IMG/VR virus record: IMGVR_UViG_3300038424_000133
DNA length: 64,000 nt
From: an uncultured virus (IMG/VR IMGVR_UViG_3300038424_000133)
Lineage: Duplodnaviria > Heunggongvirae > Uroviricota > Caudoviricetes
Direction: 5' to 3' (one strand)
The first letter of the stretch is position 1. Each line of letters opens with the position of its first letter. The translations under genes were made by a program, and so were the position numbers. Below the pieces are notes generated by a model that saw nothing but the letters and a program-made list of their open reading frames with translations, made no database searches and had not been told where the DNA came from. Below are positions 489 through 17,644 of the stretch, in pieces.

Positions 489-680
489 TTAATTAAATAA
501 CAACTTAAAAATCGCTAAGTTTCCCAACTTCATTTCTCCGCCATTCCAATTATTGCCAACTTTAAACCAATGAATCAAATAATCATATTTATTATCACAT
601 TTGCATTGGTAAAAATAACTATTTCTACTATGAGGTTTAAGTTCTGCTTTGCAATAGGGGCAAAAATATTTATCGGTCAT
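489..680 (-). CDS. small Zn-finger protein (paralogue of 1104, 10749, 11311; lacks the FIFR tail)
   Basis: FCPYCK..L...YQCKC...W pattern shared with the paralogues. Confidence 0.65.
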   Translation of the reverse strand: MTDKYFCPYCKAELKPHSRNSYFYQCKCDNKYDYLIHWFKVGNNWNGGEMKLGNLAIFKLLFN

Positions 681-949
681 CTAAATATGAACGCCTGATT
701 TTTATTTGTAAATTTACGCCATAATTTGAACCAATTCTTATTTTTATCATACTTATTAATAGGAACACATAAATGTTGTGCTTCCTCATATACTTCTCCC
801 CATTTATTAAAGCACTTAGGGCAAAGTACAGCCAATTTTGTACGGCTATCTTCTTCTTCTTGTGTCTCTCCCAAATTAATTTCCCAGAACTGCCCGTTGC
901 TACCTGTTCTTAATGCATTGCATTTTGCACATCTGCTAATATTTGACAT
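677..949 (-). CDS. Cys-rich small protein, C-terminal FIFR
   Basis: RCAKC...LCPKC...NQAFIFR*; AGGTGA RBS. Confidence 0.75.
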   Translation of the reverse strand: MSNISRCAKCNALRTGSNGQFWEINLGETQEEEDSRTKLAVLCPKCFNKWGEVYEEAQHLCVPINKYDKNKNWFKLWRKFTNKNQAFIFR

Positions 950-954
950 TTATA

Positions 955-1099
955 TCACCTAAATACAAACGCTTTGGTTAATTTTACTTTTTCCATAAGC
1001 ACAATTTTTTTGAAGACCGCAATCTTTGCATTCAATCACGCACCATTCTTTTCTTTGCTTTTCGTTTGTAATTGCACTATTAAAATTTACTTCAATCAT
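955..1099 (-). pseudogene. frameshifted FVFR-tail Zn-ribbon gene
   Basis: Removing one A from the A7 run (plus strand T1005-1011) gives MIEVNF...CVIECKDCGLQKIVLMEKVKLTKAFVFR*. Confidence 0.65.
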
Positions 1100-1103
1100 T
1101 ATA

Positions 1104-1331
1104 TCACCTGAAAATAAACACCTGCTTACCTTTTGGTATTTTATCACTGTCATGCCAATCTACATTTCTCCAAATTTTCCAAATCTTCTCATTCGATAAC
1201 CAAGCCCACCTTGACGGACTTGTTATACAATCACAATTAAACATAATATATTGCTGAATAGTACGAGAATACCTTAGTTTTTTATGGCAGAAAGGGCAAA
1301 TGAATCTATCATCTTTTAAATTTACTTCCAT
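1104..1331 (-). CDS. small Zn-finger protein, C-terminal FIFR
   Basis: ICPFC...NCDC...KQVFIFR*. Confidence 0.75.
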   Translation of the reverse strand: MEVNLKDDRFICPFCHKKLRYSRTIQQYIMFNCDCITSPSRWAWLSNEKIWKIWRNVDWHDSDKIPKGKQVFIFR

Positions 1332-1337
1332 TATTAG

Positions 1338-1571
1338 TCACCTGAATATGAAGGGTTGATGCTTTGGTTTTTGTAATGGGTCGAATCTACAATAATATGG
1401 ATAAGATTTCTGTTTTGCCATTTCCATTGCTATATCATGTATTTCTTTAGTAGTTAACAGTTGGATGTTTTTATCATCGAATTTTATGTCTTTAATATGA
1501 ATAGTGGTACTTATACCTATGCATTTAGGACATTCAGGGTATTTACCAAGATGTTTTTTAGCGGAAGACAA
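1338..1571 (-). CDS. small protein (CPKC), C-terminal FIFR
   Basis: TTG start inside the upstream FVFR codons with AGGAGA RBS; ends KPKHQPFIFR*. Confidence 0.7.
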   Translation of the reverse strand: MSSAKKHLGKYPECPKCIGISTTIHIKDIKFDDKNIQLLTTKEIHDIAMEMAKQKSYPYYCRFDPLQKPKHQPFIFR

Positions 1572-1785
1572 ACGGCTCTCTCCTTATCAATTTATAATCT
1601 TCACTATTAATTTTATAAGTTTGCAATAAATGTCTGGCTTTATTTAAACAAGCATTAGACATATATGTATTTCCCTGTTTTTTCCATTTATTACTTGATT
1701 CAATTAACCTGTTAATTAGTCTTACAGCCTTTCTTTTTTTTGCATTTTCTTGCATTTGAATTTGAGTTAATTTAACGAAAGACAA
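1558..1785 (-). CDS. small helical protein (possibly DUF2786-like), C-terminal FVFR
   Basis: LINRLIES...ACLNKARHLLQTYKI...EPFVFR*. Confidence 0.7.
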   Translation of the reverse strand: MSFVKLTQIQMQENAKKRKAVRLINRLIESSNKWKKQGNTYMSNACLNKARHLLQTYKINSEDYKLIRREPFVFR

Positions 1786-1963
1786 ATTTCATCACCTTAA
1801 AGTTTCTATTTTTCTCTTTCCCTAATACTCTATCACAAAAAGGGCAGTAGATTTTAACCCAGAGTTTAACTTGCGAAAATTCTACTGCTACCTTATCGTC
1901 TGGAATCATCCTACCGCACTCAGGACATTCAACAATTTCGAAACTGATTTCATCGGAAGACAA
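1772..1963 (-). CDS. Zn-ribbon protein, C-terminal FVFR
   Basis: CPECG...YCPFC...MKFVFR*; AGGTGA RBS then TTG start. Confidence 0.75.
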   Translation of the reverse strand: MSSDEISFEIVECPECGRMIPDDKVAVEFSQVKLWVKIYCPFCDRVLGKEKNRNFKVMKFVFR

Positions 1964-2195
1964 ATTTTGTCACCTTGCTTTCTATAAATTTAATAAATGT
2001 TTTTTCGTCCCACTTATCATCTGTACAATGTGTCCTTACCCAATCATAATAAATTAAGTTACAGTTATGGCATAATGCGCCTATTAATTCCTGAGTTGTG
2101 ATTTGCTTTCCACAATAATTGCAGATATTTTTATCGTTGTTTGCTTGAATGCGGTCTAACAGACTTTTTAGCATAGGTATAATACACCATATCAC
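1950..2195 (-). CDS. Cys-rich small protein, C-terminal FVFR
   Basis: CNYC...LCHNC...TKFVFR*; the true start is probably the internal ATG (MLKSLL). Confidence 0.7.
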   Translation of the reverse strand: MIWCIIPMLKSLLDRIQANNDKNICNYCGKQITTQELIGALCHNCNLIYYDWVRTHCTDDKWDEKTFIKFIESKVTKFVFR

Positions 2196-2285
2196 ACTTA
2201 TAAACTTTTAGTTTAATCAATTACTTAAATAAACTATAAAATAAAAACATAATTTCACTATGGCAATGTGGGCAAATTAAATTAC

Positions 2286-2456
2286 TTATCGGAATACGAA
2301 CACATCCTTTACCTTAAGTTCTTTACCGCAATAATTGCAACCGTCACATTCATTGCAACAACAACCCTTCATATGATAACTACGGCAATCAAGACAACCT
2401 TCATAAAGGAAATCTCTGCCACAAATAGAGCATTTTAATGGTTTAAGTTTTGGCAT
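2286..2456 (-). CDS. 56-aa Cys-rich protein, C-terminal FVFR (below ORF-track cutoff)
   Basis: MPKLKPLKCSICGRDFLYEGCLDCRSYHMKGCCCNECDGCNYCGKELKVKDVFVFR*. Confidence 0.75.
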   Translation of the reverse strand: MPKLKPLKCSICGRDFLYEGCLDCRSYHMKGCCCNECDGCNYCGKELKVKDVFVFR

Positions 2457-2490
2457 ATTTTATCCATAGTTATATTAATGGTGTTAACAC

Positions 2491-3081
2491 TTATAAACTT
2501 TGCTGTTTTAATTCATTAGTCAATTCCAAATACTCAAAGACTAAATCGTTTATTACAGCCATATTGTAACCTGTAAAGACGTTATGATATATAAATTTAT
2601 GTAACCAAACAGGTATATAAACTACACATTCTTTATCTATATGATGCCCTTCTGAGCCTTCAAAATAATCATTTAATTCAACATAATCTAAATCACGGCG
2701 TTTAGCATAATGTTTGGCATAAATTTTTCGTAGTTTATCAGGGTTACTCTTACGCCAGTTTCTTCTATGTTCATTATATTGTTCTTTATTAGTATGTTCT
2801 TTATTATCATAATAATATTTTTTACGCTTTTCATTATATTCTTTTCTATGTGTTGCTTCATATTTTTTATCGTATTGTTTACATTTTTCTGGGTGTTTCA
2901 AACGCCAATTTCTTATTGCTTCTCTACATTTTTCAATATTTTTACTTCGCCAATTTCTATGATAGCCGATACATTTCTCATTATTCTTCTCACGCCAGTT
3001 TCTTTGATATTCTTTAAATTTAGGGGTTTTACTACGTTTTCTATCATATTCTTTGGTTTTTTCAGGGTCTTTATAGGGCAT
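2491..3081 (-). CDS. HNH-like endonuclease with basic helical N-terminal repeats
   Basis: K/R/Y/W-rich repeats, then EGHHID...LHKFIYHN. Confidence 0.6.
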   Translation of the reverse strand: MPYKDPEKTKEYDRKRSKTPKFKEYQRNWREKNNEKCIGYHRNWRSKNIEKCREAIRNWRLKHPEKCKQYDKKYEATHRKEYNEKRKKYYYDNKEHTNKEQYNEHRRNWRKSNPDKLRKIYAKHYAKRRDLDYVELNDYFEGSEGHHIDKECVVYIPVWLHKFIYHNVFTGYNMAVINDLVFEYLELTNELKQQSL

Positions 3082-3095
3082 TAATTATCATCCTT

Positions 3096-3209
3096 CTAAT
3101 AGAAGGTATGACCGCAATCACCACAACGATAACGCTGTTTCTTGCCTTTAACTGTGGGTACTTTACCAAACTTTTGTATCTTAATTGATTTACATCGTAA
3201 GCAATTCAT
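3096..3209 (-). CDS. 37-aa Zn-ribbon protein
   Basis: MNCLRCKS..IQKFG...KQRYRCGDCGHTFY*; own TATA box at about 3242-3249. Confidence 0.6.
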   Translation of the reverse strand: MNCLRCKSIKIQKFGKVPTVKGKKQRYRCGDCGHTFY

Positions 3210-3257
3210 ATTGATTACCAATAAATAAATAAACAAACTACTATTTAAATCTTTTGG

Positions 3258-4079
3258 TTAAAAAAGTTGTCTAACAGAACCTACCTTGTTACTTTTATCA
3301 ATATATAAGTATGGCTTACCATTTTGAACAAATTCTGGGAATGCAATTGAATACGCATGGTTATCTGCTTTATCATAAAATATCATTGTGCCAACTGATA
3401 AACCTTTCACTTTATCACCTATTTCATTACCGAACATTTTAGATAGCTTAGAAACATCATTTTGTCCATTTATTCTGCCCAATAGAAAATATCGCCTACG
3501 TTCTATTATTCTTGTGTCCACATCTGCCAGTCGTTGAGTCAAACCCATTATACACATACCAAAATTAGTGCATTCACAAACAGTCTTATAAATGAATCTT
3601 CCATTCTTCTGTCCTAAAGCATATCTGCCAAAGATGTTCTGAATTTCTTCGACCATGTAGAGGTTTATGAATGGAATTTCGCCATTAAGTGTTTGTTTAA
3701 TAGCCTGCTTGTGGATAAAATCTTGATAAATTATATCAGCAATTATATTTCTCGAATCAAGTGGGTCAAAAGCATCATGCATATCAACAATTAAATCCTG
3801 TGGTTCAATTGGCATTATTGTTTTTGCGTTATAACTTATGTATGGGATAGCGTCAAACTTAAACATCCAATTGAGACAGTCATCAAGAACGAGCGTCTTA
3901 TATTCGCCTGTTGCGTGTCTTGGTTGTTCAATTATACGTCTAAGAATCCATTTCATCGCATTAGTTTTACCGCATTGATTCGAACCTACAGCAATCAAGC
4001 CACCGTTCTGAATTGCTTTTGCTATAATCTCGTCTAACTTAATTATGAAATCTGGGTCTATTACTTGTGGTTGACTCAT
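3258..4079 (-). CDS. HerA/FtsK-superfamily P-loop ATPase
   Basis: GSNQCGKT Walker A, YMVEEIQ Walker B, GLTQR motif. Confidence 0.7.
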   Translation of the reverse strand: MSQPQVIDPDFIIKLDEIIAKAIQNGGLIAVGSNQCGKTNAMKWILRRIIEQPRHATGEYKTLVLDDCLNWMFKFDAIPYISYNAKTIMPIEPQDLIVDMHDAFDPLDSRNIIADIIYQDFIHKQAIKQTLNGEIPFINLYMVEEIQNIFGRYALGQKNGRFIYKTVCECTNFGMCIMGLTQRLADVDTRIIERRRYFLLGRINGQNDVSKLSKMFGNEIGDKVKGLSVGTMIFYDKADNHAYSIAFPEFVQNGKPYLYIDKSNKVGSVRQLF

Positions 4080-4084
4080 TTATA

Positions 4085-4297
4085 TCACCTAAAGATAAAT
4101 GTATTATTCTCAAGCATATATATTAATGCTTCGGCTATAATGCTATTATCAAGTGGCAGATTACCAGTTGGAACACGTTTTAAATCGTCAATTACTTTCT
4201 GCTTTGTAGTTTTCATTTTATATTTCTCCCTTTTAAATAGTCTTCTATACGCCAAACTATTTGTGTCAAAACTACAATGCCAACTCCTAAACCACAA
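4085..4297 (-). CDS. small protein, C-terminal FIFR
   Basis: Ends ENNTFIFR*; its AGG TGA doubles as the RBS of the ATPase gene. Start uncertain. Confidence 0.65.
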   Translation of the reverse strand: MWFRSWHCSFDTNSLAYRRLFKREKYKMKTTKQKVIDDLKRVPTGNLPLDNSIIAEALIYMLENNTFIFR

Positions 4298-4429
4298 AAT
4301 CCGCCAATTATAGAATTAAAAATTTCACTCATTCAACATCACCATTATTTTCTATCTTTTCATCTTCATAAATTGCAATCATCTTGCACCAATATTTCTT
4401 CTCGTTCTTAAAGAATGTTTTTATGTCTC

Positions 4430-4738
4430 TCACGGTTTATAACCTTCTTTTATTAATTTATTGTATAGTATTTTATGTTCCTCTTGACCTAATTCGTAGC
4501 ATTCTTTGCATAAGTGAACTAATTGAACATGGCAATAATTTAACCAATATTCTTTACGATTTTTATGCTCTCGTTTTTTACATTCCTTTTCTATTTGTTC
4601 CCAGCGTTCTTGTAACGCCATAGTTATATCTTCAAATTGTTTTGAAGGGGCAGTCATAGTTCCAGTTGGTTTGTCATTAAATATATAAGCTGTAGTTTTA
4701 GTAACTTTACTTCTTTTAAACAACATTTTCATTATCAC
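4430..4738 (-). CDS. hypothetical protein
   Basis: ORF in a tight operon with AGGTGA RBS. Confidence 0.55.
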   Translation of the reverse strand: MIMKMLFKRSKVTKTTAYIFNDKPTGTMTAPSKQFEDITMALQERWEQIEKECKKREHKNRKEYWLNYCHVQLVHLCKECYELGQEEHKILYNKLIKEGYKP

Positions 4739-4898
4739 CTTTTGGATAAATTGGACAGTTAGCTAAGTTGCATCTATCGTTTTTATTTAAGTTGTCACTC
4801 GGTTCGTTGCAAAAACAACGCTTATCTTCACCCTGAATATGTGAGTCACATAACCTGCTAAACTTAGTGAAACTAATCATCTTTAATTTCTTAACCAT
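4716..4898 (-). CDS. small Cys-rich protein
   Basis: LCDSH...CFC...CNLANCP. Confidence 0.5.
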   Translation of the reverse strand: MVKKLKMISFTKFSRLCDSHIQGEDKRCFCNEPSDNLNKNDRCNLANCPIYPKGDNENVV

Positions 4899-4900
4899 TT

Positions 4901-5362
4901 TTATACACCAAAGTAATATTGATATTTGTAATAGTAAATTGTTGAACCGTCAATATAGTACCAATTCCAATAGTGCGGAAGTAATCCTTCATCAAATAAT
5001 CTTCCTTGATAAAAGAAGATTGTTGAAACATGCTGACTTTGACAGAAAGTTATGAAGTCATCTATTGAACTAAAACTAACTTTCGTAAGAGAAGATGATA
5101 AACCGTTGCTTCTTGACATATCTGCTGTTATAACTGTAAAGTTTGCAGTTGTAAGTTTTTGCATTGAAGCATCATAAATTGATGGTTCTGGTGAAGATGT
5201 AACTATTGGTGAAGGTGATGGTGTTAATGTTGGTTTTATTGATGATATATTATTTTGTTGATTAGCGTACACGCCAATTAACCCAATTATAGAACTAATT
5301 ATTATAATTAACATGTATATAATTTTTTGTTTTTTATTCATCATAATCACACTTATTTTCAT
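4901..5362 (-). CDS. membrane-anchored or secreted protein with Pro/Ser/Thr linker
   Basis: Basic N-region plus hydrophobic helix, then PTLTPSPSPIVTSSPEP. Confidence 0.65.
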   Translation of the reverse strand: MKISVIMMNKKQKIIYMLIIIISSIIGLIGVYANQQNNISSIKPTLTPSPSPIVTSSPEPSIYDASMQKLTTANFTVITADMSRSNGLSSSLTKVSFSSIDDFITFCQSQHVSTIFFYQGRLFDEGLLPHYWNWYYIDGSTIYYYKYQYYFGV

Positions 5363-5603: not shown

Positions 5604-5651
5604 GGTTATTAATAGTTATCGCCATTAATAAACTTATCGCCTTGTTACCAT

Positions 5652-5858
5652 CTACCTAAATATAAATGTTAATTTAAATCTGGGGCAACCTTTAGCTTGA
5701 AGGTCTTTAGATATAGGGTCGTGTCCAAAATTCTTCAAATAACAATCTTTACAATAACAATCCTTTATGACTCTTTCATATCCACATTCGTTATTACAAT
5801 AAAAAACTTTTTTACAATCAATATCAGGGCATATTTGTTTTTGTTTCATTATAGTCAC
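5652..5858 (-). CDS. Cys-rich protein, C-terminal FIFR
   Basis: ICP..CKKVFYC...CYCKDC...LTFIFR*. Confidence 0.75.
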   Translation of the reverse strand: MTIMKQKQICPDIDCKKVFYCNNECGYERVIKDCYCKDCYLKNFGHDPISKDLQAKGCPRFKLTFIFR

Positions 5859-6061
5859 CTAAATATGAATGGTTGATGTTTAGGTTTTACTTCGGGTTTA
5901 GGGTCTTCTAACTGATGAGCAAAATAATGGCAACTTTTACAAATAATCATATCTTTATGAGAAAACATATTTGTTTCACAATACATTGGTGTACCGCAAA
6001 GTTGGCACTTGGATGGTTGTTGTTTTTCTATCTTTTTATTTCTTCTTAACCAATTTAACAT
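5855..6061 (-). CDS. Zn-finger protein, C-terminal FIFR
   Basis: CQLCG...ICKSC...KPKHQPFIFR*. Confidence 0.75.
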   Translation of the reverse strand: MLNWLRRNKKIEKQQPSKCQLCGTPMYCETNMFSHKDMIICKSCHYFAHQLEDPKPEVKPKHQPFIFR

Positions 6062-6861: not shown

Positions 6862-7317
6862 TTATAAATCTTCTGGCTTATCTCCATTATTTCTTAATCT
6901 ATGACAATTAGAACAGACTAAAATTATATCATTAGGTATATAATCTTCTTTTTCCCACTTACGCAACACTTTAATTTTTTCGGTTGTTACTTTATTTGTA
7001 TGTTGTAACTTAGACCAAGAATCTTCGCCTAAATGATGGAAGTCATAAATACAATCGTGTTCTGTTACTAATCCACAGTCGTGACATTTTCTGCCTAACT
7101 TATCAACAGCCCACCTTTTTAATTTTTGCCCATATTCTCTATGATAATTCCTATAATATTCACGATGATTTTCTCTATATTTTATTGCTTTCTCACTTTC
7201 ATAATTCGCTATATAACGTTGATGTCTTTGTTCTTTAGTTTCAGCATATCGTTGCTGTTTCTGTTCTTTATTTTCATAAAATTCACCAACATGATGTTTT
7301 CTCATTTTTATCGCCAA
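6862..7317 (-). CDS. HNH endonuclease
   Basis: LGRKCHDCG...YDFHH...VCSNCHR. Confidence 0.8.
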   Translation of the reverse strand: MAIKMRKHHVGEFYENKEQKQQRYAETKEQRHQRYIANYESEKAIKYRENHREYYRNYHREYGQKLKRWAVDKLGRKCHDCGLVTEHDCIYDFHHLGEDSWSKLQHTNKVTTEKIKVLRKWEKEDYIPNDIILVCSNCHRLRNNGDKPEDL

Positions 7318-8056: not shown

Positions 8057-8281
8057 TTACGACTGTGGTTGGTTAATTACACTTGCTTTCTTAATCATAG
8101 TAACGCCTTCTCCATTCTCAATATAACTTATAAAAGCATCCACTATCGCTTCGGCGTTATTAGTGTACCAATGTTGTAGTTCTACAAAATGCCTAAACCT
8201 TTGCTCAAACCACGCTTTACCCGTTTCTGGCACATATTCCTCTAAGAGTATTTTCCAAGCACGTTTTTCATCTGTATTCAT
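8057..8281 (-). CDS. hypothetical protein
   Basis: ORF in operon. Confidence 0.5.
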   Translation of the reverse strand: MNTDEKRAWKILLEEYVPETGKAWFEQRFRHFVELQHWYTNNAEAIVDAFISYIENGEGVTMIKKASVINQPQS

Positions 8282-8284
8282 TGA

Positions 8285-8479
8285 TTATCCAAACACCCAA
8301 AAAATTGTAATAAGTATAAGAATTGAAAGACCAATTATTCCCAAAAGCAAACCTGCTATGCTTGCAACAAAAATTATCCACGCAAGATTCCAGCCTGTAA
8401 CTAAACCTGTTATAAGTTCAGCCAATCCTATCCATGCCAAAACTGCTATGATTAATCTTTCTATTGCATTCATTTCCAT
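8285..8479 (-). CDS. small two-helix membrane protein
   Basis: Two hydrophobic segments; AGGTG RBS. Confidence 0.6.
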   Translation of the reverse strand: MEMNAIERLIIAVLAWIGLAELITGLVTGWNLAWIIFVASIAGLLLGIIGLSILILITIFWVFG

Positions 8480-8844: not shown

Positions 8845-9768
8845 TTATTTATTTATGGCTTTTAGAAAACCATTTGGGGTAATTTCCATTTCTATATATT
8901 TTCTATTAAAACTACATAATCTACAAGAGAGTATTCTTGCGAAATGTGTATTTTCCCATTGTTTCTTTTGAAGTTCGTCTTTCATTTGCCCCATAGCTTT
9001 GGCGAAGTCAATACAAATAACGCTGTCTAAGTTGTGAGCCACCCCGACACCACCGCTAATTGAAAATTTGTCAGTTTCTTCTTCGCTTCGTTGGCAGACA
9101 TATAAACCCGTAATTCCTTTTAATTGGTTAAACCGTGACAGTTGCAAAACCCTATGTTTAAGATTTTGGCGATAAGATTCAAGTAAGGTCAATGAATCAA
9201 TCACTAAAAGTTTAATGTTGTTTTTGGGGTCTTCAACTAAACTTCGATATACGCCAATAAGAGTTTCAAAATCGGAAAGTTGACCGTGAGTTATACAATC
9301 TAAAACAAAAAGATTATCTTTTATCTTTTGCCAATCTAACCCAAGACTTTTAGATTTTTCCATTAGTCTTGATTGAAGGTCAAATCTTTCGTTGTCTGAA
9401 TTGAATATATCTTCACTCGTTATAAAGACCACACCTTTACTTTCATTAGCGGTTCTGAGAAGAATTTCCTGTGCAAGCAAAGATTTCCCAACACCACTTA
9501 ATCCAACTATGCCTATTTGACCGCAAGAAGGTAAACCATTCAAAGGTTCAGATTGTTCGTTAAAATAAAGTTTATCGAGAAATGTTCCTGTTAAAAACCC
9601 CTTCAAAGTCTTTTTTACAGTTAAATCATTTGGCTTTATAACTAATGCTTGCATGGTTGTATCTATCGGTTTATCAAAGGCTTTAATATCTAAATCATGT
9701 TGTGCATTAGCTAAAACTTGCGCTAACATATCTTTAAGTTTATCGGCATTTATGGCTGTTTCGGTCAT
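8845..9768 (-). CDS. archaeal single-domain KaiC-like (RecA superfamily) ATPase
   Basis: GLSGVGKS Walker A, LLVIDSLT Walker B, GGVGVAHNLDSVI; start probably MTETAIN. Confidence 0.75.
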   Translation of the reverse strand: MTETAINADKLKDMLAQVLANAQHDLDIKAFDKPIDTTMQALVIKPNDLTVKKTLKGFLTGTFLDKLYFNEQSEPLNGLPSCGQIGIVGLSGVGKSLLAQEILLRTANESKGVVFITSEDIFNSDNERFDLQSRLMEKSKSLGLDWQKIKDNLFVLDCITHGQLSDFETLIGVYRSLVEDPKNNIKLLVIDSLTLLESYRQNLKHRVLQLSRFNQLKGITGLYVCQRSEEETDKFSISGGVGVAHNLDSVICIDFAKAMGQMKDELQKKQWENTHFARILSCRLCSFNRKYIEMEITPNGFLKAINK

Positions 9769-9888
9769 TTTAATACACCAAACTTGCTGTTTGTTTCTCC
9801 GTGAAATTTTGGCAATATTCTTCGCCTGTGTGGTCACACGCCCAATTTCCAATTTTATAGTTAGCGCATCTATCAGATTTTTTGCAGG

Positions 9889-10119
9889 TCATTTTTCTAC
9901 ATCCTCTAAAAGTTCATCTGCATCAAGCCAATGTTTACCGAAAAAATTGACGACATTGCGTTTTATTTCTAAACTACTTTTACTATTTTCTTGGCGTTTT
10001 TGTGTTAACCATTCTTTGTTATATGATTTTACTGCCTTTTCTATTCTTTTTAGAATTTCATCTGACAGATAAATTGAATTATCTGCTAAGTATTGTTTTA
10101 GTGTTTTTTGTTCTGTCAT
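9889..10119 (-). CDS. hypothetical protein
   Basis: ORF with AGGTGA RBS. Confidence 0.5.
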   Translation of the reverse strand: MTEQKTLKQYLADNSIYLSDEILKRIEKAVKSYNKEWLTQKRQENSKSSLEIKRNVVNFFGKHWLDADELLEDVEK

Positions 10120-10262
10120 TGCTTAGATTCACCTTTTTTCACGGTGTCAAAGTATTCTTTATTTTTTTGTTTTTTGCGTAAAGGGCAATTTTTGCGTATT
10201 GAAGACTTGCATTTTCGACAATTTTTAACTAACCCAACTCGATATTGACACATATTTTTCAC

Positions 10263-10691
10263 CTAATCGCAATTTGGATAGAACAAACAAACTGTCTTAC
10301 CAACCATGCCGAAGCCGTGTCCAATGAAACTCTGCCAGCGTGTAATTTTAACCCAAACTAATCCTTCTTGGTTTTCTGGCTGACCTTGTGGTGCTTTTAC
10401 TTCTTCAAACTCTAATTGTTCATACTTTTTAAGATATTTATGCAAATCAGCCCAGCCTTGACAAACGGCAGGTTCATTAAAGTCATAATTAGCACCTGAA
10501 ATTCTACCAAGAATCTTGCCTATGTCGCCATCCATTGGTAATGGTACAAATACGCCTTCAATTTGCACATGGTTGCAACATACGCCATTAGTTTGTTGTT
10601 CCCAAAACACATTAGTTTTCATTGGCAAAACAAACCCGAAATTATGGTCGTAAGTATTTAATTCAATTCTGTTGTTTTTCAAATCAATCAC
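10263..10691 (-). CDS. hypothetical protein (resembles DUF6210 from memory)
   Basis: QQTNGxxC...EGVFVPL...EGLVWV...YPNCD. Confidence 0.5.
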   Translation of the reverse strand: MIDLKNNRIELNTYDHNFGFVLPMKTNVFWEQQTNGVCCNHVQIEGVFVPLPMDGDIGKILGRISGANYDFNEPAVCQGWADLHKYLKKYEQLEFEEVKAPQGQPENQEGLVWVKITRWQSFIGHGFGMVGKTVCLFYPNCD

Positions 10692-10748
10692 TTTATATAA
10701 TTAAGTATGGAGTTCTCCTATATAAACTTTACCTCTTTTAACCATTAG

Positions 10749-11015
10749 TCACCTGAATATAAAAGTTTCCTTAATCTTCATTTCTTTATCGTTAAAATAT
10801 TTAGTTGGTTCATTACGACCTAAGTAACCCCATCTTTTGCCACCACTTCTAACTAAATATTCGCTTCCATCATGTAAATATATCCAATTGCCACAACTAT
10901 TATATGACTTGCATTTGCATCTGTAATAATCGTGAGTGTAATTAATTTTTCTTGTACATTCTGAAAGAATTAACCGTGACTTACAAATGGGGCAAACAAT
11001 AAACATCCATATCAC
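10749..11015 (-). CDS. Zn-finger protein, C-terminal FIFR
   Basis: VCPICK...YRCKC...KETFIFR*. Confidence 0.75.
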   Translation of the reverse strand: MIWMFIVCPICKSRLILSECTRKINYTHDYYRCKCKSYNSCGNWIYLHDGSEYLVRSGGKRWGYLGRNEPTKYFNDKEMKIKETFIFR

Positions 11016-11314
11016 CTGAATATAAATGTATGTTTAGTTTCTTTATCTGGAACATCTTTAAGTTTCAAGAAATAATTAAAAAAGATGTTACGCCAATTAT
11101 TCCATTTATTATATATATCTGCAAGGGTACTTATATCTACTTTTTTAGAGTAAAATTTATCCCATATTTTATCGCAGTCTTTGCAACAATAATAAGTTTT
11201 ACCTTTATGAGTAATCATAGACTGGATATAATTTCCATTTTCCAAATCAATCTTTCCATATTTATAATTTAAATCAATATGGAATTCTACACCGCACCTA
11301 CAACATTTAATCAT
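11012..11314 (-). CDS. Cys-rich protein, C-terminal FIFR
   Basis: CCRCG...CCKDC...KHTFIFR*. Confidence 0.75.
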   Translation of the reverse strand: MIKCCRCGVEFHIDLNYKYGKIDLENGNYIQSMITHKGKTYYCCKDCDKIWDKFYSKKVDISTLADIYNKWNNWRNIFFNYFLKLKDVPDKETKHTFIFR

Positions 11315-11547
11315 CTAAATATGAACACCTGCTTTGGTTGTGGTTTTTCGTTAACTTCTATCCAACCCGAATTTTCTGCCTCTAAATAAAGCCAAGATTT
11401 AGTTTTATAATTATATTGCCATGAGAATTTTCTAACTGAAAGTGATTTATAATTTTTTAAAGGATGACATTCACACCAATAACAATATTTATCATAAGAT
11501 ACTAAAGGTGTCTTACAGTAAGGGCAAATTAGTTTTATATCACTCAT
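11311..11547 (-). CDS. Zn-finger protein, C-terminal FIFR
   Basis: ICPYCK...WCEC...KQVFIFR*. Confidence 0.75.
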   Translation of the reverse strand: MSDIKLICPYCKTPLVSYDKYCYWCECHPLKNYKSLSVRKFSWQYNYKTKSWLYLEAENSGWIEVNEKPQPKQVFIFR

Positions 11548-11786
11548 CTAAAGACAAACCCCTCTCCACTATAACACCGTTTAACTCGTTGTTTATTATA
11601 AGGTTCATTTTTAGTTGTGCATTCTTTACAATAACATTTTCTCTCTGTAGTTTTTTCAATTTTAATGCCACCCCAATCATCTTCATCAAAGCATTTAAAT
11701 TTAACTATTTTTCCGCTAAAAGTCATAACGCCGTCTGCATTACATAAAAATGTTTTACCGCAACTTTTACATTTAACCCTAATCAT
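11544..11786 (-). CDS. Cys-rich protein, C-terminal FVFR
   Basis: CKSCGKTFLC...CYCKEC...EGFVFR*. Confidence 0.75.
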   Translation of the reverse strand: MIRVKCKSCGKTFLCNADGVMTFSGKIVKFKCFDEDDWGGIKIEKTTERKCYCKECTTKNEPYNKQRVKRCYSGEGFVFR

Positions 11787-12190
11787 CTGAAAATGAAAAC
11801 CTCTTTTCCTCTTATTTTTTTAAGGTCATTTAAAAGTTTGGGATTCTCAGCATTGTCAACCCAACCATGATGAAGACTATGATAGTCGCCAACTTTGTAG
11901 AAACTATTATTTTTATCTTTTAAATAAATTATTTTTATTGATATTATGCCATAACCTACACTGTAGTAACCCATTACTTCACCAATAAAATAGGATATTT
12001 CGCTATCTTTATCAATATAACTGTTATCATCGTGTCTATTACTTATAATTAAACATTTAATTATGTCGCCAACTTTATGCTTTACCGAAAATCGGCATTT
12101 ACTATCATCCATATCCCACCCTGAATTTTGATATAATTCTGGGTGTTCAACTACATATTTTGGGGCTTTAGGATTTATTAGCAATTTCAA
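11783..12190 (-). CDS. beta-rich (possibly SH3-like) protein, C-terminal FIFR
   Basis: HKVGDIIK...YKVGD...KEVFIFR*; first gene after the promoter at about 12216-12230. Confidence 0.7.
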   Translation of the reverse strand: MKLLINPKAPKYVVEHPELYQNSGWDMDDSKCRFSVKHKVGDIIKCLIISNRHDDNSYIDKDSEISYFIGEVMGYYSVGYGIISIKIIYLKDKNNSFYKVGDYHSLHHGWVDNAENPKLLNDLKKIRGKEVFIFR

Positions 12191-12231
12191 TCATCATTAT
12201 TAATACAGGCAGTAACTAATAAAGTTTTTGC

Positions 12232-12464: not shown

Positions 12465-13277
12465 TTAACTTCTTTTGACTTTTCTATATGCAAGTGCGCT
12501 TAAAGTCACTACTGCTATGGCAGTAACAACTAAAACGATTGAGAGCCATAGTGGAAAACCTGCACCATTAATGCCATCTGTACCATTAGTTCCAGCTTTT
12601 CCTTGACTACCAATAGCACCTTGAGAACCAGTCGCACCAGTAGCACCACTTTGACCAGTTGCGCCAGTAGCCCCTTGACTACCAGTTGCACCCATAGCAC
12701 CTGTTAATCCTGTTGCACCATCTTTGCCGTTTGTTCCGTTAGTTCCATTTGTACCATTTACTCCTGCAATTCCTTGAAGACCTGTCTTTCCAACGTGTCC
12801 TACTGCACCTGTTAAACCTGTAGCACCCTGAATACCTTGCTCTCCTTGAATACCTTGAGCACCTTGTTCGCCTTGTGAGCCTGTAGCTCCTGTCTGTCCA
12901 GTTGCACCCGTTGCGCCTACCATACTAATAACTGTGAATGTTGCCGATGCTGAATCGCCATTAACTGTTGCTTTTATTGTGTATAAGCCAGCCGTAGTTG
13001 TAGGTATAGAAATGATTACTACAAAGTTTCCAGAACTATCAGTTTTTCCAGTTGCACTAACAAAAGGTTGCGAAACATCATTCCAATAGATAGTTATAAC
13101 TTTGTTATTATCAAAGTCACTTCCAACTATTGTAACGCAAGAAAATCCAGAGTTTGGAGATAAAGTTATTGATTGTGTGCAAGCATTAACATTACTCATC
13201 ATAACAACTGCCATCATCATTAATGCTATTAGAAGTATAGTACCATATAATTTACTTTTCATTAATTTTTTCACCAC
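12465..13277 (-). CDS. membrane-anchored collagen-like surface protein
   Basis: Signal peptide, Ig-like beta domain, long Gly-X-Y run, C-terminal TM helix with basic tail. Confidence 0.85.
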
Positions 13278-14438: not shown

Positions 14439-14803
14439 TTCTTTTCATCCTCTTTTGGTTGTTCAGTATTGAATGGAGTAGTTAATAGTGCTGGCTCACT
14501 TGGAAAGAATAATGCTGGCTGTTTCTCTTTCTTATGTTTACGCTTATGCAATAATGTTTGTTTTGGAGAACTTACTGTTGAAGTTACTGCTTTAGGTGGC
14601 AGACCAAGATTCTTGCGTATTTCTTCATCAGTTAAAACTTTTCCCTTTCTCCGAATTGTTTCAGCACCTATCTTAAATTTAATTTTACATGATTTACAAA
14701 CCCAAAACTTAGACCTACCTTTCATCTCAGTTCCAACGATTGTATTTCTCCATTCATCGTACATTAATCTACCACAGTTTGGACACGCTGGATTTGTCAT
14801 CAA
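14435..14803 (-). CDS. Zn-ribbon protein with basic tail
   Basis: CPNCG...WVCKSC. Confidence 0.6.
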   Translation of the reverse strand: MMTNPACPNCGRLMYDEWRNTIVGTEMKGRSKFWVCKSCKIKFKIGAETIRRKGKVLTDEEIRKNLGLPPKAVTSTVSSPKQTLLHKRKHKKEKQPALFFPSEPALLTTPFNTEQPKEDEKK

Positions 14804-14940
14804 TTATCCCTCATATATTTACCTATATATCGCCGCCTTATTTAAACCTTTCTTATTATTACCATATAATCTTTATCTCAACATTTTTTAGTTATGTAAA
14901 GAGAAAGATTTAAATAGTTGCTTAAATATATGTAATTATA

Positions 14941-15450
14941 GTGATAAATTTGACAACGACTTATGATAAAGTTAAGGAATGGCGAAAGAAAAATCCTGAG
15001 AAACATAGAGAACAGAGTAAGAAATGGGCTAAAGAACATCCTGAATATAGAAAAAATTATGCAAAAAATCATATATTAGAACACAACTTAGGGAATAAAA
15101 GATATAGAGAAAATCACAAGGAAGAAATTAAATTAAAGCGCAAAGAAAATTATGATACAATATACCGAAAATCCAGAGAGAACTTTTTGAAAATTAAAAT
15201 GTGGTGTATTGAACAATTAGGTAATAAATGTAAAAAATGTAATATAAAAGATTTAGACCATCCAGAAATTTATGATTTTCATCATATAAATGGTAGAAAT
15301 GATGAAGAAAAGAATAAAATTACAAGAAGTTTAATGGTGAAATGGTATAAAAATAATAAAATTCCAAATGATGTTGAATTATTATGTTCAAATTGCCATA
15401 GAGTAATAACTGCTCAAGAAGAACGGGAACATAAAAATAATTTTAATTAA
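14941..15450 (+). CDS. HNH endonuclease
   Basis: LGNKCKKC...YDFHH...LCSNCHR; own plus-strand promoter at about 14903-14916. Confidence 0.8.
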   Translation: MINLTTTYDKVKEWRKKNPEKHREQSKKWAKEHPEYRKNYAKNHILEHNLGNKRYRENHKEEIKLKRKENYDTIYRKSRENFLKIKMWCIEQLGNKCKKCNIKDLDHPEIYDFHHINGRNDEEKNKITRSLMVKWYKNNKIPNDVELLCSNCHRVITAQEEREHKNNFN

Positions 15451-15581
15451 TTATTTTCCTTATAATACCAGAACCATTGCATTCTTCACATTTAACTCTT
15501 TCAAACCGATATTTACCATTACATTTTGAGTTTTTAATGATTAAATAACCGTTACCATTACAAACTTTACAATCATAAACT

Positions 15582-16328
15582 TTATACATCTTTCTTTACA
15601 CCACACTTCGGGCATAGTTCATCAACATCTCTTAATGTACCGCATTTTGGGCATTGAGACTCAACTTTAATATATCTTTCTTTCATAATTTCAGGGTCAA
15701 GCATCTCCCTAACTAATTTGAATTGTCTCTCATAAATGTGTGTATTCTTACTATGAAAAATAAGTTTGCCAGATGGTACACCAATCTCAGAAGCCATGAA
15801 TTCTACCATCATTTGTATGCCTGCTATGTTGCATGGCAATCCAGCGTAAGCATCCCAACTACGGAAGTAAGCTGTTGCACAAAGTTTATCTTCTATGATT
15901 TCGAAGTCAATCATCGTTAAGCATGGTGGGTCTTTGCATTTACCCTTAATTATGTCTTCTGGTCTTCGAATAATAACTGTACATTGGCGGTCAAACTTCT
16001 CTTGTTTAAACCTATCAATAACATTTTGTAATTGGTCAACTGGCTTACGCATTCGGTTGCCATAAGTATATTCTGCCATGTCTGGCTCTGGATACCAAAG
16101 ATATATGCCTGCATACCAATTAAGATAAGTTAAATCATTTGGGGCTTTCTCATGAAGTAATGGTCTCATTTCTGGATGCTCAATTTCTAATGTAAAGTTA
16201 ATTTTTTTGGTTAAAGTTTGCTCTGAACCATAGCCAACTTTAAATTCTATTCCTTCTTTATCTATTGCCCTTAATGTCTTCATATATCCGTCTGGGCAAT
16301 CAAAAGCATTTATTTTTATGTGTTTCAT
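15582..16328 (-). CDS. thyA: thymidylate synthase (archaeal ThyA type) with C-terminal Zn ribbon
   Basis: YTYGNR, DPPCL, FRSWD, N(IAG) and HIYE motifs. Confidence 0.85.
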   Translation of the reverse strand: MKHIKINAFDCPDGYMKTLRAIDKEGIEFKVGYGSEQTLTKKINFTLEIEHPEMRPLLHEKAPNDLTYLNWYAGIYLWYPEPDMAEYTYGNRMRKPVDQLQNVIDRFKQEKFDRQCTVIIRRPEDIIKGKCKDPPCLTMIDFEIIEDKLCATAYFRSWDAYAGLPCNIAGIQMMVEFMASEIGVPSGKLIFHSKNTHIYERQFKLVREMLDPEIMKERYIKVESQCPKCGTLRDVDELCPKCGVKKDV

Positions 16329-16760
16329 TTAAAATAACACTCACTACAGACAATATCGCCTTTCTTCATTCCCATTTTACTGCCCTTCTTTCTCACACAT
16401 AATTGATATGGCAAGTTTACCTCTAATCACTATTATATCAAGTTCTTCTGTAGTTGGAAATTCGTGATTAATCCAATATCTAACATCACGCTTCCAAAAA
16501 TTAGGATTCTTCATATTTTCATCTATAAGTGGTTGAAACTTAGCTTTAATCTTTTCAAATTGTTTTTTTGAAACATACTCAATTATTTGTGTCATTTTAA
16601 ATGCTCCAATAAAGTATTTGCGCTTTCAACACGACTATATTTCGTTTTCCTTCTTTCTGCAATCTATGTGTTACTTCTTCTGGCGTTTCAGTTCCAATCA
16701 GAAAATAACCAATTGTTCCATCTGGATTAGTATATAAAACAAACTCTTGTGTTCTCATAT

Positions 16761-16985
16761 TTAACACACCATTAAGTAATGCTTGAAACCTTCCTTTTGT
16801 TCGCATGGGCATGGATTAGTTTGTCCAGTAACAAACTTTGCATCTGTGCTTATTGTCCAACCGTGATTTAATCCACTTGGATTCTTCTGGTTTACTAATT
16901 CAACTATCCTTCTCTTAGATTTAACATTAGTGCATACTGAGCAATATATAAGCCCGTTTCTATAAACTTCAAGTTCTTTTTTCAT
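16761..16985 (-). CDS. small Cys-containing protein
   Basis: CSVCT...NPCPC...HYLMVC. Confidence 0.55.
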   Translation of the reverse strand: MKKELEVYRNGLIYCSVCTNVKSKRRIVELVNQKNPSGLNHGWTISTDAKFVTGQTNPCPCEQKEGFKHYLMVC

Positions 16986-17456
16986 TGACCTTTAACCACC
17001 TTGTATCTTGTGTCGCAAAAGGGGCAGTCTATGAATCCTTCTGGAATAACTCTTTTACATCTTCGACATATTCTTGAGTTGTTTACTCCAATTACTTCGC
17101 CCATTTTTATCAACATAAATATAATAGCATCTGTTACTTAAAAAGGTTGTGGTTATCTAATGTTAATGATAATAAAAACTTTTATATATTACGAAAACTT
17201 TGTTCATTCCTTATGCCAGATGATATATGTCATTACTGCCAATGTAAAATGGATATAGATAACTCAAAACCTATCCCTAATATTATCGTTTATAAATGCC
17301 CAAAATGCAATGTAAGGTTCTTTTACTCTACAACTAACCAACAACCCTCACACAGCCAACTGTGACTATGGTTCTTGGGTATCCAAACTATATGTATTTC
17401 CTTAATGTTATGTTCAACACCGCATTTATCACAGCATTTAGTAGTTGTTATTTTAG

Positions 17457-17644
17457 TCACCTAAAAATAAATGGTTGCCTACTATTAAGTTGTTTACAAC
17501 GACTAAACCTGTATTACCTGCACCCTTAAAACATTTAGCGCATAAACAATTCTTATTAATAGAAGCACAACTATTATCGCAATAAAATACTTTCTGGCAT
17601 TTAGGGCAAACTCTTTTTATTTGTATTTTTAAATTCTTGCTCAA
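17457..17644 (-). pseudogene. frameshifted FIFR-tail gene (paralogue of 5652)
   Basis: N-terminus VCPKCQKVFYC...CLCAKC; the -1 frame reads RFSRCKQLNSRQPFIFR* ending at 17457. Confidence 0.65.

Follow-up and report, generated by a model that had tools for sequence, protein, structure and literature searches.

Why should so many small proteins of one virus end in the same four residues? In the window (the whole stretch of 64,000 nucleotides that was analysed), which derives from an uncultured archaeal virus from peat, a preliminary description had noted 15 intact open reading frames ending in FIFR or FVFR, and had proposed that variable cargoes plug into one common partner through this tag.

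The C-terminal tail in the window

All 15 open reading frames were confirmed, ten ending in FIFR and five in FVFR, and all are encoded on the minus strand (Table 1); F[IV]FR followed by a stop was not found on the plus strand of the window. Of the 115 crude gene calls on the minus strand (19,620 aa), 15 close with the motif, against 0.001 expected from composition, and it is never internal in these calls, all 15 occurrences being the last four residues; no other C-terminal tetramer appears twice among them. The tag is thus real and far above chance. Among small genes (140 aa or less), it is carried by 15 of 44 in the first 1-18.5 kb and by 0 of 28 beyond, in agreement with its reported absence past 18 kb. 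The bodies had been described as unrelated, and this mostly holds, with blastp linking only a few pairs of them; 11 of the tagged proteins contain at least four Cys and the other four contain three or fewer.

Table 1. Minus-strand features bearing on the tail, by window position
Position	Strand	Length (aa)	Description	C-terminal end	Related sequences
2..415	-	138	N-terminal part of a MoxR-class AAA_5 ATPase (AAA_5 E 3e-09), continuing past the window edge
489..680	-		Untagged CPxC-family paralogue, decayed or having overrun its tag	LAIFK+LLFN	Orthologue P0101 ends GKAFIFR; variant P0098 ends LAIFFVI
677..949	-	90	Tagged; Zn-ribbon, family A3/A7	NQAFIFR	Homologues end IIFI, IIFI, LIFV, VIFT
955..1153	-		Frameshifted tagged gene; ORF 959-1153 ends SVCI	TKAFVFR-stop in another frame (stop 955)
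1104..1331	-	75	Tagged; CPxC...CxC family	KQVFIFR	Orthologues P0094, P0096 and P0097 all end GKQVFIFR
1338..1571	-	77	Tagged	KHQPFIFR
1558..1785	-	75	Tagged; Cys-poor	REPFVFR
1772..1963	-	63	Tagged; Zn-ribbon	MKFVFR
1950..2195	-	81	Tagged	TKFVFR
2286..2456	-	56	Tagged; 10 Cys	DVFVFR
4085..4297	-	70	Tagged; Cys-poor	NNTFIFR
5652..5858	-	68	Tagged; MYND-like Zn finger, family A4	LTFIFR	P0089 (98% identical) ends TFVFR; L038 homologue RIVFT; P0092 KVEFT
5855..6061	-	68	Tagged	KHQPFIFR
10749..11015	-	88	Tagged; CPxC family	KETFIFR	P0093, same ending
11012..11314	-	100	Tagged	KHTFIFR
11311..11547	-	78	Tagged; CPxC family	KQVFIFR	P0099 (61% identical) ends EKQVFIFR; P0100 (51%) ends KKEVFIFR
11544..11786	-	80	Tagged; 8 Cys	GEGFVFR
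11783..12190	-	135	Tagged; Cys-poor	KEVFIFR	One run with an in-frame 180-nt deletion (11884-12065), tail kept
17453..17668	-		Frameshifted tagged gene, family A4	QPFIFR-stop out of frame (stop 17457)

Two further copies of F[IV]FR with its stop codon lie out of frame, at 955 and 17457; both had been read as tagged genes one base away from being intact. This was borne out for 17457: a different sample yielded P0091, which matches the window ORF 17453-17668 exactly as far as GAGNTGL and then continues to NSRQPFIFR; for 955, an intact counterpart was not found in sequence searches. Contigs of run X7 over 673-4952 and 15174-17981, which span the two frameshifted copies, show zero differences from the window.

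The tail is retained exactly by orthologues whose identity has fallen to 25-61%, and in eight aligned CPxC-family proteins four of the 12 invariant columns are the tail itself. The proposal that selection acts on the peptide at the free C-terminus is strengthened by this conservation. In an AlphaFold2 model of the 677..949 protein, a helix (residues 66-81) is followed by coil, with pLDDT below 50 for the last three residues, so that the model leaves the tail unpacked.

The codons of the 15 intact tails vary as had been claimed, with the qualification that their usage is biased. Arg is encoded by AGG (7), AGA (4), CGA (2), CGC (1) and CGT (1), Phe by TTT and TTC, and Ile/Val by ATA, ATT, ATC, GTC and GTA, with TGA (11), TAA (3) and TAG (1) as stops; AGG accounts for 7 of 15 Arg codons against 15% genome-wide, TGA for 11 of 15 stops against 33%, and GTC for four of five Val codons against 6%. 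This bias is explained by dual use: AGGTGA is also a Shine-Dalgarno site 5-8 nt ahead of the next ATG, AGATGA contains an overlapping ATG, and TTTGTC supplies a TTG start. The tail might then be a by-product of a nucleotide signal, its 3' ends being kept for translational coupling to the next gene or for cassette recombination and the peptide being incidental, and the preference for AGG-TGA (with its GGTGA Shine-Dalgarno core), AGA-TGA and TTT-GTC speaks for such a reading. Dual use does not account for the motif, however, because tails ending in CGC-TAA, CGT-TAA or CGA-TAA carry no such signal and the tails of the relatives L038 and L006 (ACN-TAA, ATC-TAG) vary synonymously in the absence of a Shine-Dalgarno site. 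Furthermore, variation extends over synonymous sites and across AGR and CGN Arg codons, and only the last 5-6 nt, not all 12, could serve as a Shine-Dalgarno site. The codon data thus already largely refute this reading, which we regard as improbable in the extreme.

Tails of related viruses

The preliminary description had raised the case of homologues that keep their bodies and not the tail. Relatives retain the bodies together with a tail, but the tail differs by genome: F[IV]FR (14 of 148 gene calls in one relative), [IV][IV]FT, IIFI, LIFV or K[VI]KVxL[IV] (31 of 225). Proteins of families A7, A4 and A8 accordingly end in FIFR, IIFI, LIFV, VIFT, IVFT or VEFT depending on their source. When the tails were removed from 64 tagged proteins, six cross-genome body matches were obtained and all six joined different tail types; tail type therefore tracks the genome and not the protein family. 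That homologous bodies bear the tail of their resident genome implies a single reader, which would co-evolve with it, and these three body families with differing tails strengthen the earlier notion of many cargoes sharing one partner. The motif is also wider than F[IV]FR: near relatives show PHI-[IV]-F-x, and another one K-V-x-L-[IV].

These lineage-specific forms bear on two readings of the tail as a docking signal. Under the first, it would be a clamp-binding tail recruiting proteins to PCNA, encoded by the host or by the viral genome outside the window. Archaeal PIP motifs do sit at extreme C-termini, the FEN1 proteins of candidate hosts end in TTLEKWFG, TTLDTFF or TRLDAFFG, and nine of the 15 window tails have Gln or Glu at -6. 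The spacing, however, misfits Qxx[LIM]xx[FY][FY], as the aromatic pair would fall past the C-terminus; the tail of relative G782 has no aromatic residue, no PCNA was detected in the window, and the conserved pockets of PCNA fit poorly with lineage-specific last residues. We consider PCNA binding very unlikely.

Under the second, the last three residues and their carboxylate would enter the pockets between the alpha subunits of the host 20S proteasome in the manner of HbYX motifs, the small proteins acting as degradation adaptors, gate openers or competitors. As in the HbYX proteins (PAN, Rpt subunits, Cdc48/p97, PA200), a strictly C-terminal tripeptide (hydrophobic, aromatic, any) on many proteins would address one ring-shaped machine, and the FIFR, IIFT and IIFI lineages fit, with I/V at -3, an invariant Phe at -2 and a variable -1. 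Activation of the human 20S tolerates or favours a penultimate Phe, also on a monovalent carrier protein, according to the available part of PMC8907193. Unlike HbYX, the tags have Phe in place of Tyr and show no link to proteasome genes, G782 lacks an aromatic residue altogether (K-V-x-L-[IV]), and P0092 has Glu at -3; HbYX needs no fixed last residue, yet within a given genome the last residue does not vary. In five Bathyarchaeia genomes and the metagenome-assembled genome G009, no PAN was found above the family cut-off and Cdc48 ends in TPVA or KYVG, leaving no host HbYX tail for mimicry. HbYX-like docking, which also leaves the co-occurrence described below unexplained, appears quite unlikely, together with the roles it would assign to the small proteins.

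The AAA_5 ATPase and its putative CobT-like partner

The AAA_5 fragment at the window edge, 74 nt downstream of the main tagged array, alone among the window genes follows the tail: all three further tail-bearing genomes have it, and all three tail-less ones (G006, G007 and G008) lack it. It is also the best-conserved protein across the former (72, 59 and 60% identity to its counterparts in G781, G782 and G780), with 62% identity to that of L038. Used as bait, it recovered three IMG/VR contigs, all with tail arrays (14 of 148, 31 of 225 and 4 of 116 gene calls). The viruses with tails all belong to one clade, so this co-occurrence may reflect a single shared inheritance, not five independent events.

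In relatives, the ATPase gene adjoins one for a CobT-like protein of about 556 aa, in which an HExxH domain at the N-terminus precedes a vWA/MIDAS domain at the C-terminus; no such vWA partner can be seen within the window. The MIDAS is intact (DxSGS..SGT..SD), and HExxH plus ED is invariant in all four sequences. The protein matches the integrin I-domain (E 5.5e-4), and its N-domain resembles viral CobT-like clusters (TM 0.68-0.77); a Pfam, NCBIfam and PDB profile search returned no family for the HExxH domain. The partner thus appears to be built for peptide reading, and the AAA_5 protein is a candidate motor of the tag reader.

Tagged genes lie beside this module. In L038, 530 nt separate a tagged gene from the start of the AAA_5 gene that follows it; in L284, tagged genes begin 12 nt after the vWA gene; and in L285/G781 they lie between the two module genes and flank both sides. 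In G782, 3.5 kb lie between the AAA_5 gene and the start of the nearest tagged array, and further arrays are up to 37 kb distant. Adjacency is weak evidence, as small early genes cluster anyway. Furthermore, halovirus HHTV-2 has a distant AAA/vWA pair and no tail set (0 of 30 CDS), so that the link to tails is not general to viral AAA/vWA pairs. In G008, a 120-aa ORF weakly resembles the HExxH region (17.5 bits); G008 is the sole true tail-less relative, G006 and G007 sharing little beyond one ATPase.

A virus-encoded, co-evolving receptor could also be structural, the tail docking diverse small proteins to scaffold, portal or capsid for packaging and delivery along with the DNA. Hypervariable arrays carrying many kinds of cargo would be accounted for in this way, and clients that are both small and basic would suit it. 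The tagged genes, however, have replication and nucleotide-metabolism genes as neighbours and are distant from the structural genes, which occupy about 40-58 kb; tail-less G008 has the portal and other structural genes in common with the window virus (25-35% identity), so no structural gene tracks the tail; the 31 species that G782 would have to package are also many. We find virion targeting doubtful. The capsid-targeting sequence of phage T4 internal proteins and the encapsulation peptides of bacterial microcompartments similarly place a short terminal peptide on unrelated, fast-changing cargo for one virus- or operon-encoded receptor, and they are N-terminal or helical and send cargo into a shell; here, the tag shows no link to structural genes. 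Poxvirus ankyrin/PRANC (F-box-like) proteins and other viral adaptors follow a like logic, with a variable recognition part and a constant C-terminal plug. Their plug is a folded domain that binds a host ligase, unlike the present tail of 4-7 residues, whose likeliest partner is virus-encoded.

Alternatively, the tail may be a C-terminal degron through which a protease of the host or of the virus would remove early proteins at a set time. It is terminal, hydrophobic, exposed and borne by many unrelated short proteins, and the neighbouring partner carries HExxH; a host protease, however, would not be expected to force FIFR, IIFT and KVILI on related viruses. A degron is in our view unlikely, and with the HExxH-vWA protein as the protease it merges with the explanation that we favour.

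Relation to known systems and a proposed role

The preliminary description knew of no comparable system, and the literature searched yielded no paper describing such tags; a general model of peptide capture by MoxR-vWA pairs has nevertheless been published. Known MoxR-class AAA+/vWA co-chaperone pairs include CbbQ-CbbO, NorQ-NorD and RavA-ViaA; in the model given in the available part of the account of MoxR-vWA 'ternary systems' (Kaur et al. 2020, PMC7159879), the vWA domain captures a substrate peptide and the AAA+ ring remodels the substrate. As in those pairs, the ATPase is small, of the AAA_5 type and equipped with a CbbQ_C lid, and the large protein encoded beside it ends in a vWA/MIDAS domain. 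In contrast to their one substrate or third component, 4-31 unrelated small proteins per genome here would share one short terminal tag, the system is viral, and the partner carries an HExxH domain; the part of the account available describes no tag of this kind.

The cobS/cobT clusters of cyanophages and haloarchaeal tailed viruses have the same architecture, and annotation agrees (PHROG 'porphyrin biosynthesis'; Atlas clusters named CobT-related). The available portion of PMC8651126 notes that viral cobT is frequently annotated as a peptidase and does not mention tag-bearing clients; the paper proposes cobalt insertion with host CobN. For the AAA_5 protein studied here the CobS score is 23 bits, where the cut-off is 558, and HHTV-2, with a pair of the cobS/cobT type, lacks a tail set.

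Taken together, these data partly support the original interpretation: peptide selection stands and a candidate partner co-occurs with and adjoins the tagged genes, while the motif is wider than had been stated. For a tag that is selected, lineage-specific in form and found with and beside this module, we tentatively propose that the tails are client tags of a virus-encoded AAA_5/CobT-like machine, a reading that is plausible but far from assured. F[IV]FR would be a peptide address placed at the free end of a flexible C-terminal tail and borne by small Zn-ribbon proteins, mostly basic, whose repertoire changes. The machine would consist of the MoxR-class ATPase and the CobT-like partner, whose gene in the window virus would lie just outside the window. 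The partner may capture the tail, its MIDAS metal and/or HExxH site reading the terminal carboxylate and last residue, and the AAA+ ring may then remodel, release or process the client. Since the tag is found only where this ATPase and adaptor pair are found, it may be an address label for that machine, and reader pocket and tag would drift together, giving each virus lineage its own ending.

The F[IV]FR tag in the window

The window encodes 15 intact ORFs that terminate in the tag, all on the minus strand (10 in FIFR and five in FVFR), and the stops listed for them in the preliminary description coincide exactly with ORF ends. Two additional F[IV]FR-stop sites, at 955 and 17457, lie out of frame, and none was found on the plus strand of the window. 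The 115 crude gene calls (19,620 residues) contain F[IV]FR 15 times and in each case at the very C-terminus, compared to 0.001 C-terminal cases expected from composition, and no other terminal 4-mer recurs in these calls. The tag is also, as originally described, confined to the early part of the window, being carried by 15 of the 44 small genes in the first 18.5 kb and by none of the 28 that follow.

The codons of the tail vary at all wobble positions and also between AGR and CGN for Arg, indicating that selection acts on the tail peptide, as had been proposed; a purely nucleotide-level origin of the motif, which these codon data contradict, is scarcely credible. There is nevertheless a codon bias in the tails (AGG in 7/15, TGA in 11/15 and GTC for 4/5 Val), attributable to tail bases that double as signals for the following gene: AGGTGA precedes its ATG by 5-8 nt, AGATGA contributes an overlapping ATG and TTTGTC a TTG start. 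Such double duty cannot account for the motif, because CGN-TAA tails and the tails of relatives occur without such signals. The bodies preceding the tail had been assigned to Zn-finger families and Cys-poor proteins. The Zn-finger part of this account stands for 11 of the 15, which contain at least four Cys (Cys-rich Zn-ribbons), and several others have no Cys at all, so that metal loading is not the whole story for these putative clients. For the product of 677-949, the AF2 model (pLDDT 69) places a helix at 66-81 followed by coil and low-confidence last residues, which fits a free tail.

Tagged and decayed loci in the window total 18. ORF 17453-17668 belongs to a MYND-like family and is frameshifted; the one-base correction suggested at 17457 is corroborated by P0091, a homologous protein from another sample that shows no difference as far as ...GAGNTGL, beyond which it continues to ...NSRQPFIFR. 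The copy postulated at 955 fared less well: its F[IV]FR-stop is present, out of frame behind A-runs, but no intact counterpart emerged from the searches. Contigs from one sequencing run (X7) span both frameshift sites with zero differences, and the frameshifts are therefore not the artefact of a single assembly. An untagged paralogue at 489-680 ends in ...LAIFK+LLFN; its orthologue P0101 ends in ...GKAFIFR. Several runs have 553-673, inside this decayed member, swapped for about 107 other letters, and one run carries an in-frame 180-nt deletion (11884-12065) in tagged gene 11783-12190, with the tail kept.

Genome setting and candidate hosts

Pfam and PHROG matches show the window, on its predicted gene content, to be that of an archaeal tailed virus. 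Its long ORFs all lie on the minus strand, with a GC content of about 32%. The MCM helicase reaches at most 30% identity to named viruses, among which neither the portal-like protein nor the vWA protein of the relatives found a match. The stretch 600-2500 is present in 24 peat/wetland metagenome runs (2017-2025, 23 study codes, of which four are possible sources), none of them listed as RNA. The longest contig on record for the virus measures 92,546 bp, about 28 kb more than the window.

Features of the window and of related loci, with coordinates in each sequence
Feature	Sequence	Coordinates	Strand	Matches or remarks
AAA_5 (MoxR/CobS-like) ATPase, N-terminal 138 residues	Window	2-415		Pfam/PHROG; window's very start
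KaiC-like ATPase	Window	8845-9852	minus	Pfam/PHROG
MCM helicase	Window	36649-38598		Pfam/PHROG
Portal-like protein	Window	55131-57896		Pfam/PHROG
Archaeo-eukaryotic primase	Window	58652-59731		Pfam/PHROG
RadA	Window	61826-62848		Pfam/PHROG
HK97-gp10-like protein	Window			Pfam/PHROG
ThyA-like enzyme, dCMP deaminase, several HNH endonucleases	Window			Pfam/PHROG
Nucleotide-metabolism genes	Window	15582-16328, 22483-22794, 24919-25278, 27082-27558, 57977-58435, 59732-60370, 60367-60837		
HNH-type endonuclease paralogues	Window	2491-3081, 6862-7317, 19425-19973, 29238-29723, 49297-49869		
HNH-type endonuclease paralogue	Window	14941-15450	plus	Only sizeable plus-strand gene within first 20 kb
213-226-aa ORF	L285	10888-11541		No Pfam/NCBIfam match
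213-226-aa ORF	L286	11192-11833		No Pfam/NCBIfam match
213-226-aa ORF	L284	4266-4946		No Pfam/NCBIfam match
213-226-aa ORF	L038	8218-8859		No Pfam/NCBIfam match

Nucleotide-metabolism genes are dense in the window, comprising a ThyA-like protein with a C-terminal Zn-ribbon, dUTPase-like, phosphoribosyltransferase and Nudix proteins, a dATP/dGTP diphosphohydrolase N-domain, a dCMP deaminase and a nucleoside deoxyribosyltransferase-like protein; given this set, the DNA bases of the virus may be modified. The six HNH-type paralogues are scattered and have repetitive, Lys/Tyr/Asn-rich N-terminal parts. The 270-aa product of minus-strand gene 12465-13277 starts with a signal/anchor-like segment and ends with a membrane helix; between them lie a beta-sandwich-like part and some 110 residues of collagen G-x-y repeats. 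Read depth in bin 9792-10378 is 14-120 in four runs vs about 2-9 elsewhere, with a variant segment (about 9996-10107) at depth 60-600; from this excess, a short stretch within gene 9889-10119 seems to be common to far more abundant DNA.

The KaiC-like ATPase shares 39-47% identity with a KaiC-type gene conserved in Bathyarchaeia MAGs, which suggests gene exchange between the virus and a Bathyarchaeia lineage. The Bathyarchaeia gene encodes 403-422 aa, with an HTH domain in some copies, and has a conserved place in many MAGs. A virus contig of the type of L038, a related locus, was binned in the 1.3-Mb MAG G009 (GC 0.31-0.35; genomes of its phylum span 0.3-2.0 Mb), and both lineages are thus candidate hosts. 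Searches with the DNA of window 10700-12200 against 371 genomes of the G009 phylum and 401 of the Bathyarchaeia class of G003 returned only short chance-level matches.

Lineage-specific tails in related viruses

Whether homologues keep the tail received a divided answer: a tail is kept, but each relative has an ending of its own. Searching 1.84 billion representatives with a profile of the Zn-ribbon family of 677-949 yielded six matches, five of them small proteins ending in FIFR, IIFI, IIFI, LIFV and VIFT and the sixth a partial match within an 885-aa protein. Members of the MYND-like family end in TFVFR (a 98% identical variant), QPFIFR, RIVFT and KVEFT, and seven of eight further proteins of a CPxC family (25-61% identity to the query) end in xFIFR, the other being a variant with LAIFFVI. 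At L038 (identical to L040), where the KaiC-like ATPase is 53% identical to that of the window, five small proteins end in E[RK][IV][IV]FT with synonymously varying codons; this locus also holds an ATP-dependent DNA ligase gene (1267-3021) split by a LAGLIDADG-containing intein. Two small proteins at L006 end in IIFI. Only L006, L038 and L040 have a recurrent tail-type terminal 3-mer among 83 loci with the KaiC-like ATPase, of which L001 has an unrelated terminal KLE twice. A loose hydrophobic-F-x pattern matches about 7 of the 1,542 gene calls at 80 genome loci, which come almost entirely from Bathyarchaeia MAGs, and no such ending recurs within a locus.

Three viral genomes carry tail sets of their own: G781 (93.7 kb, complete) has F[IV]FR in 14/148 gene calls, G782 (112 kb, complete) K[VI][KR]VxL[IV] in 31/225, and G780 (59 kb, about 71% complete) x[IVLK]FT in 4/116. 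We compared the bodies of the 64 tagged proteins from the window and these genomes after removal of the last 8 residues, and all six cross-genome matches pair unlike tail types (FVFR/KVMLI; EVLLV/VIFT). As far as these sequences tell, tail type is set by the genome and not by the protein family. Together with the three family searches, the six matches show that in each lineage unrelated families changed their tails in concert, as would be expected if the specificity of one reader drifted and all clients followed. At L285, the locus of G781, the homologue of window 5652-5858 (2468-2716) ends in ...TTFIFR+EVKKNE, six residues past the tag, and is a natural extended-tail variant; another small protein there (8195-8380) ends in ...AKVR+EVKTNE.

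Scans of IMG/VR with the KaiC-like ATPase, MCM and protein family A10 gave no matches, and alignment A2 retrieved no contig beyond one already known. An Atlas search with the 135-aa tagged protein returned unnamed viral clusters only (scores below 0.9). Several cellular look-alikes were discarded: 'FLYR' stops near cellular ATPase genes are short spurious frames; MLL[DE]F[IL]F[TA], a C-terminus that recurs in hosts, belongs to a ZIP transporter, whose final membrane helix it forms; and the IIFT-type DNA pattern has 8 matches in G009 vs 7 in a reversed control, with only the one on the viral contig ending a real ORF.

The AAA_5/vWA module as a candidate reader

The tagged genes at L038 precede that of an AAA_5 ATPase 62% identical to the window fragment, and at L095, a locus of this virus type, a vWA protein of 558 aa comes next. 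The AAA_5 bait retrieved three contigs from IMG/VR (G780, G781 and G782 as whole records), all three with tail arrays, and alignment A13 retrieved the same three. The AAA_5 fragment is the only window protein present in G780, G781 and G782 yet absent from the tail-less records G006, G007 and G008, and its identity to G781, G782 and G780 (72, 59 and 60%, respectively) is the highest of the shared proteins. G008 is genuinely, if remotely, related: it has the portal, primase, RadA and both other ATPases in common (25-50% identity), and tail-type endings in 0/140 gene calls. Profile searches found AAA_5 in none of the three tail-less records and the vWA protein in none save for a weak 17.5-bit match to the HExxH region in a 120-aa G008 ORF. 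Since the tail-bearing viruses form one clade, this co-occurrence may reflect a single inheritance, and adjacency counts for little because small early genes cluster whatever their function.

The AAA_5 protein is predicted to combine an AAA_5 domain with a CbbQ/NirQ/NorQ-type lid. The window fragment matches AAA_5 with an E-value of 3e-09; its full-length homologue at L285 scores 47 bits (cut-off 22), with a CbbQ_C lid at 19.4 bits, slightly below the cut-off of 20.6. A predicted vWA/MIDAS neighbour is found in the relatives only, the window ending inside the AAA_5 gene. The partner at L285 scores 33.6 bits for vWA (cut-off 23.8); 4/4 vWA proteins share, without variation, an intact MIDAS (DxSGS..SGT..SD) and an HExxH followed downstream by ED, and they also match the integrin alpha-M I-domain (E 5.5e-4). 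The predicted structure of the partner's N-domain resembles viral 'CobT-like' clusters (TM 0.68-0.77). The HExxH domain matched no peptidase family in Pfam (E<=10) or in a PDB profile search, and the vWA protein had no NCBIfam match. A true CobS/CobT pair was rejected, as AAA_5 scores 23 bits against CobS TIGR01650 (cut-off 558.6) and the CobT likeness is at the level of predicted structure only; AAA_5 also falls far under the GvpN equivalog cut-off. Four lineages have a 213-226-aa ORF that separates or flanks the AAA_5 and vWA genes, alike by size and position only; its product may belong to the module as a third component.

Other candidate readers were set aside. The minus-strand gene 3258-4079 encodes a 273-aa P-loop protein (AF2 pLDDT 81) closest to the STIV/STIV2 B204 packaging ATPase and HerA (Foldseek E 5e-12), and lies beside tagged genes also in L038 and L006. 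This B204/HerA-like ATPase adjoins tagged genes but is also present in tail-less G008. The unannotated genes 20449-21186, 38599-39285 and 39402-40013 have no PDB relative, and no clamp was found.

Docking of the tails to the 20S proteasome in the manner of HbYX motifs is improbable. The [IV]-F-x tails would fit if Phe replaced Tyr, a substitution that a passage in PMC8907193 reports as acceptable for human 20S, but the pattern fails in G782 (V-x-L-[IV]) and in the homologous protein P0092 (E at -3), and no HbYX-bearing activator was seen in candidate hosts. A complex prediction with three 20S alpha copies from G009 and the last 36 residues of protein family A7, run without controls, scored 0.00, a value that speaks neither for docking nor for its absence. 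Still more improbable is PCNA clamp binding through a PIP-type motif: FEN1 tails of candidate hosts have the canonical PIP form, and in Qxx[LIMV]xx[FYW][FYWL] the tail [QE]-x-F-[IV]-F-R would put the aromatic pair past the end. Ribosomal stalk mimicry was rejected because the viral tails lack the acidic linker and the Leu at -6, and one binder would be enough; host P1 proteins end in ..GLGALFG or ..GLANLFG. We regard a packaging signal as unlikely, and a degron as slightly less likely again.

In the model for MoxR-vWA systems put forward in a passage of PMC7159879, the vWA domain captures a substrate peptide, with remodelling and release falling to the AAA+ ring. Following this model, we read the tails as client tags of the virus's own candidate AAA_5/HExxH-vWA machine, a reading we hold tentatively, at somewhat less than even confidence. 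The candidate reader would bind the terminal carboxylate and discriminate the last residue, for which either the MIDAS metal or the peptidase-like HExxH might be suitable, and the fate of clients could be activation, assembly, tail trimming or destruction. To our knowledge, the CobS/CobT-like pair is widespread in bacterial and archaeal tailed viruses, its role having only been guessed at, as cobalamin synthesis. Halovirus HHTV-2 has a distant AAA/vWA pair and, unlike this clade, no tail set (0/30 CDS). For archaeal tailed viruses, passages in PMC8651126 propose that viral cobST boosts cobalamin synthesis and describe viral cobT as frequently annotated as a peptidase. A broader and more doubtful proposal is that, at least in this clade, the viral 'CobS/CobT' pair would be a tag-directed client-processing machine and not a cobalt chelatase, with the HExxH/MIDAS subunit reading, and perhaps trimming, genome-specific tails on 4-31 small Zn-ribbon effectors, the AAA+ ring activating or deploying them, and a virus-private code co-evolving with its reader.

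In the literature we found no paper on shared C-terminal tags of archaeal-virus proteins. If the AAA_5/vWA module reads the tag, this would be the first client set identified for a viral MoxR-vWA (CobS/CobT-like) machine, and the tagged set probably serves host takeover or counter-defence. The tails would then constitute a new short linear address code in archaeal viruses, variable between lineages and uniform within each genome, and would unite 15-31 otherwise unannotatable small proteins per genome into one functional set. Furthermore, metagenomes can readily be scanned for a recurrent C-terminal ending, which could serve there as a marker of such systems.
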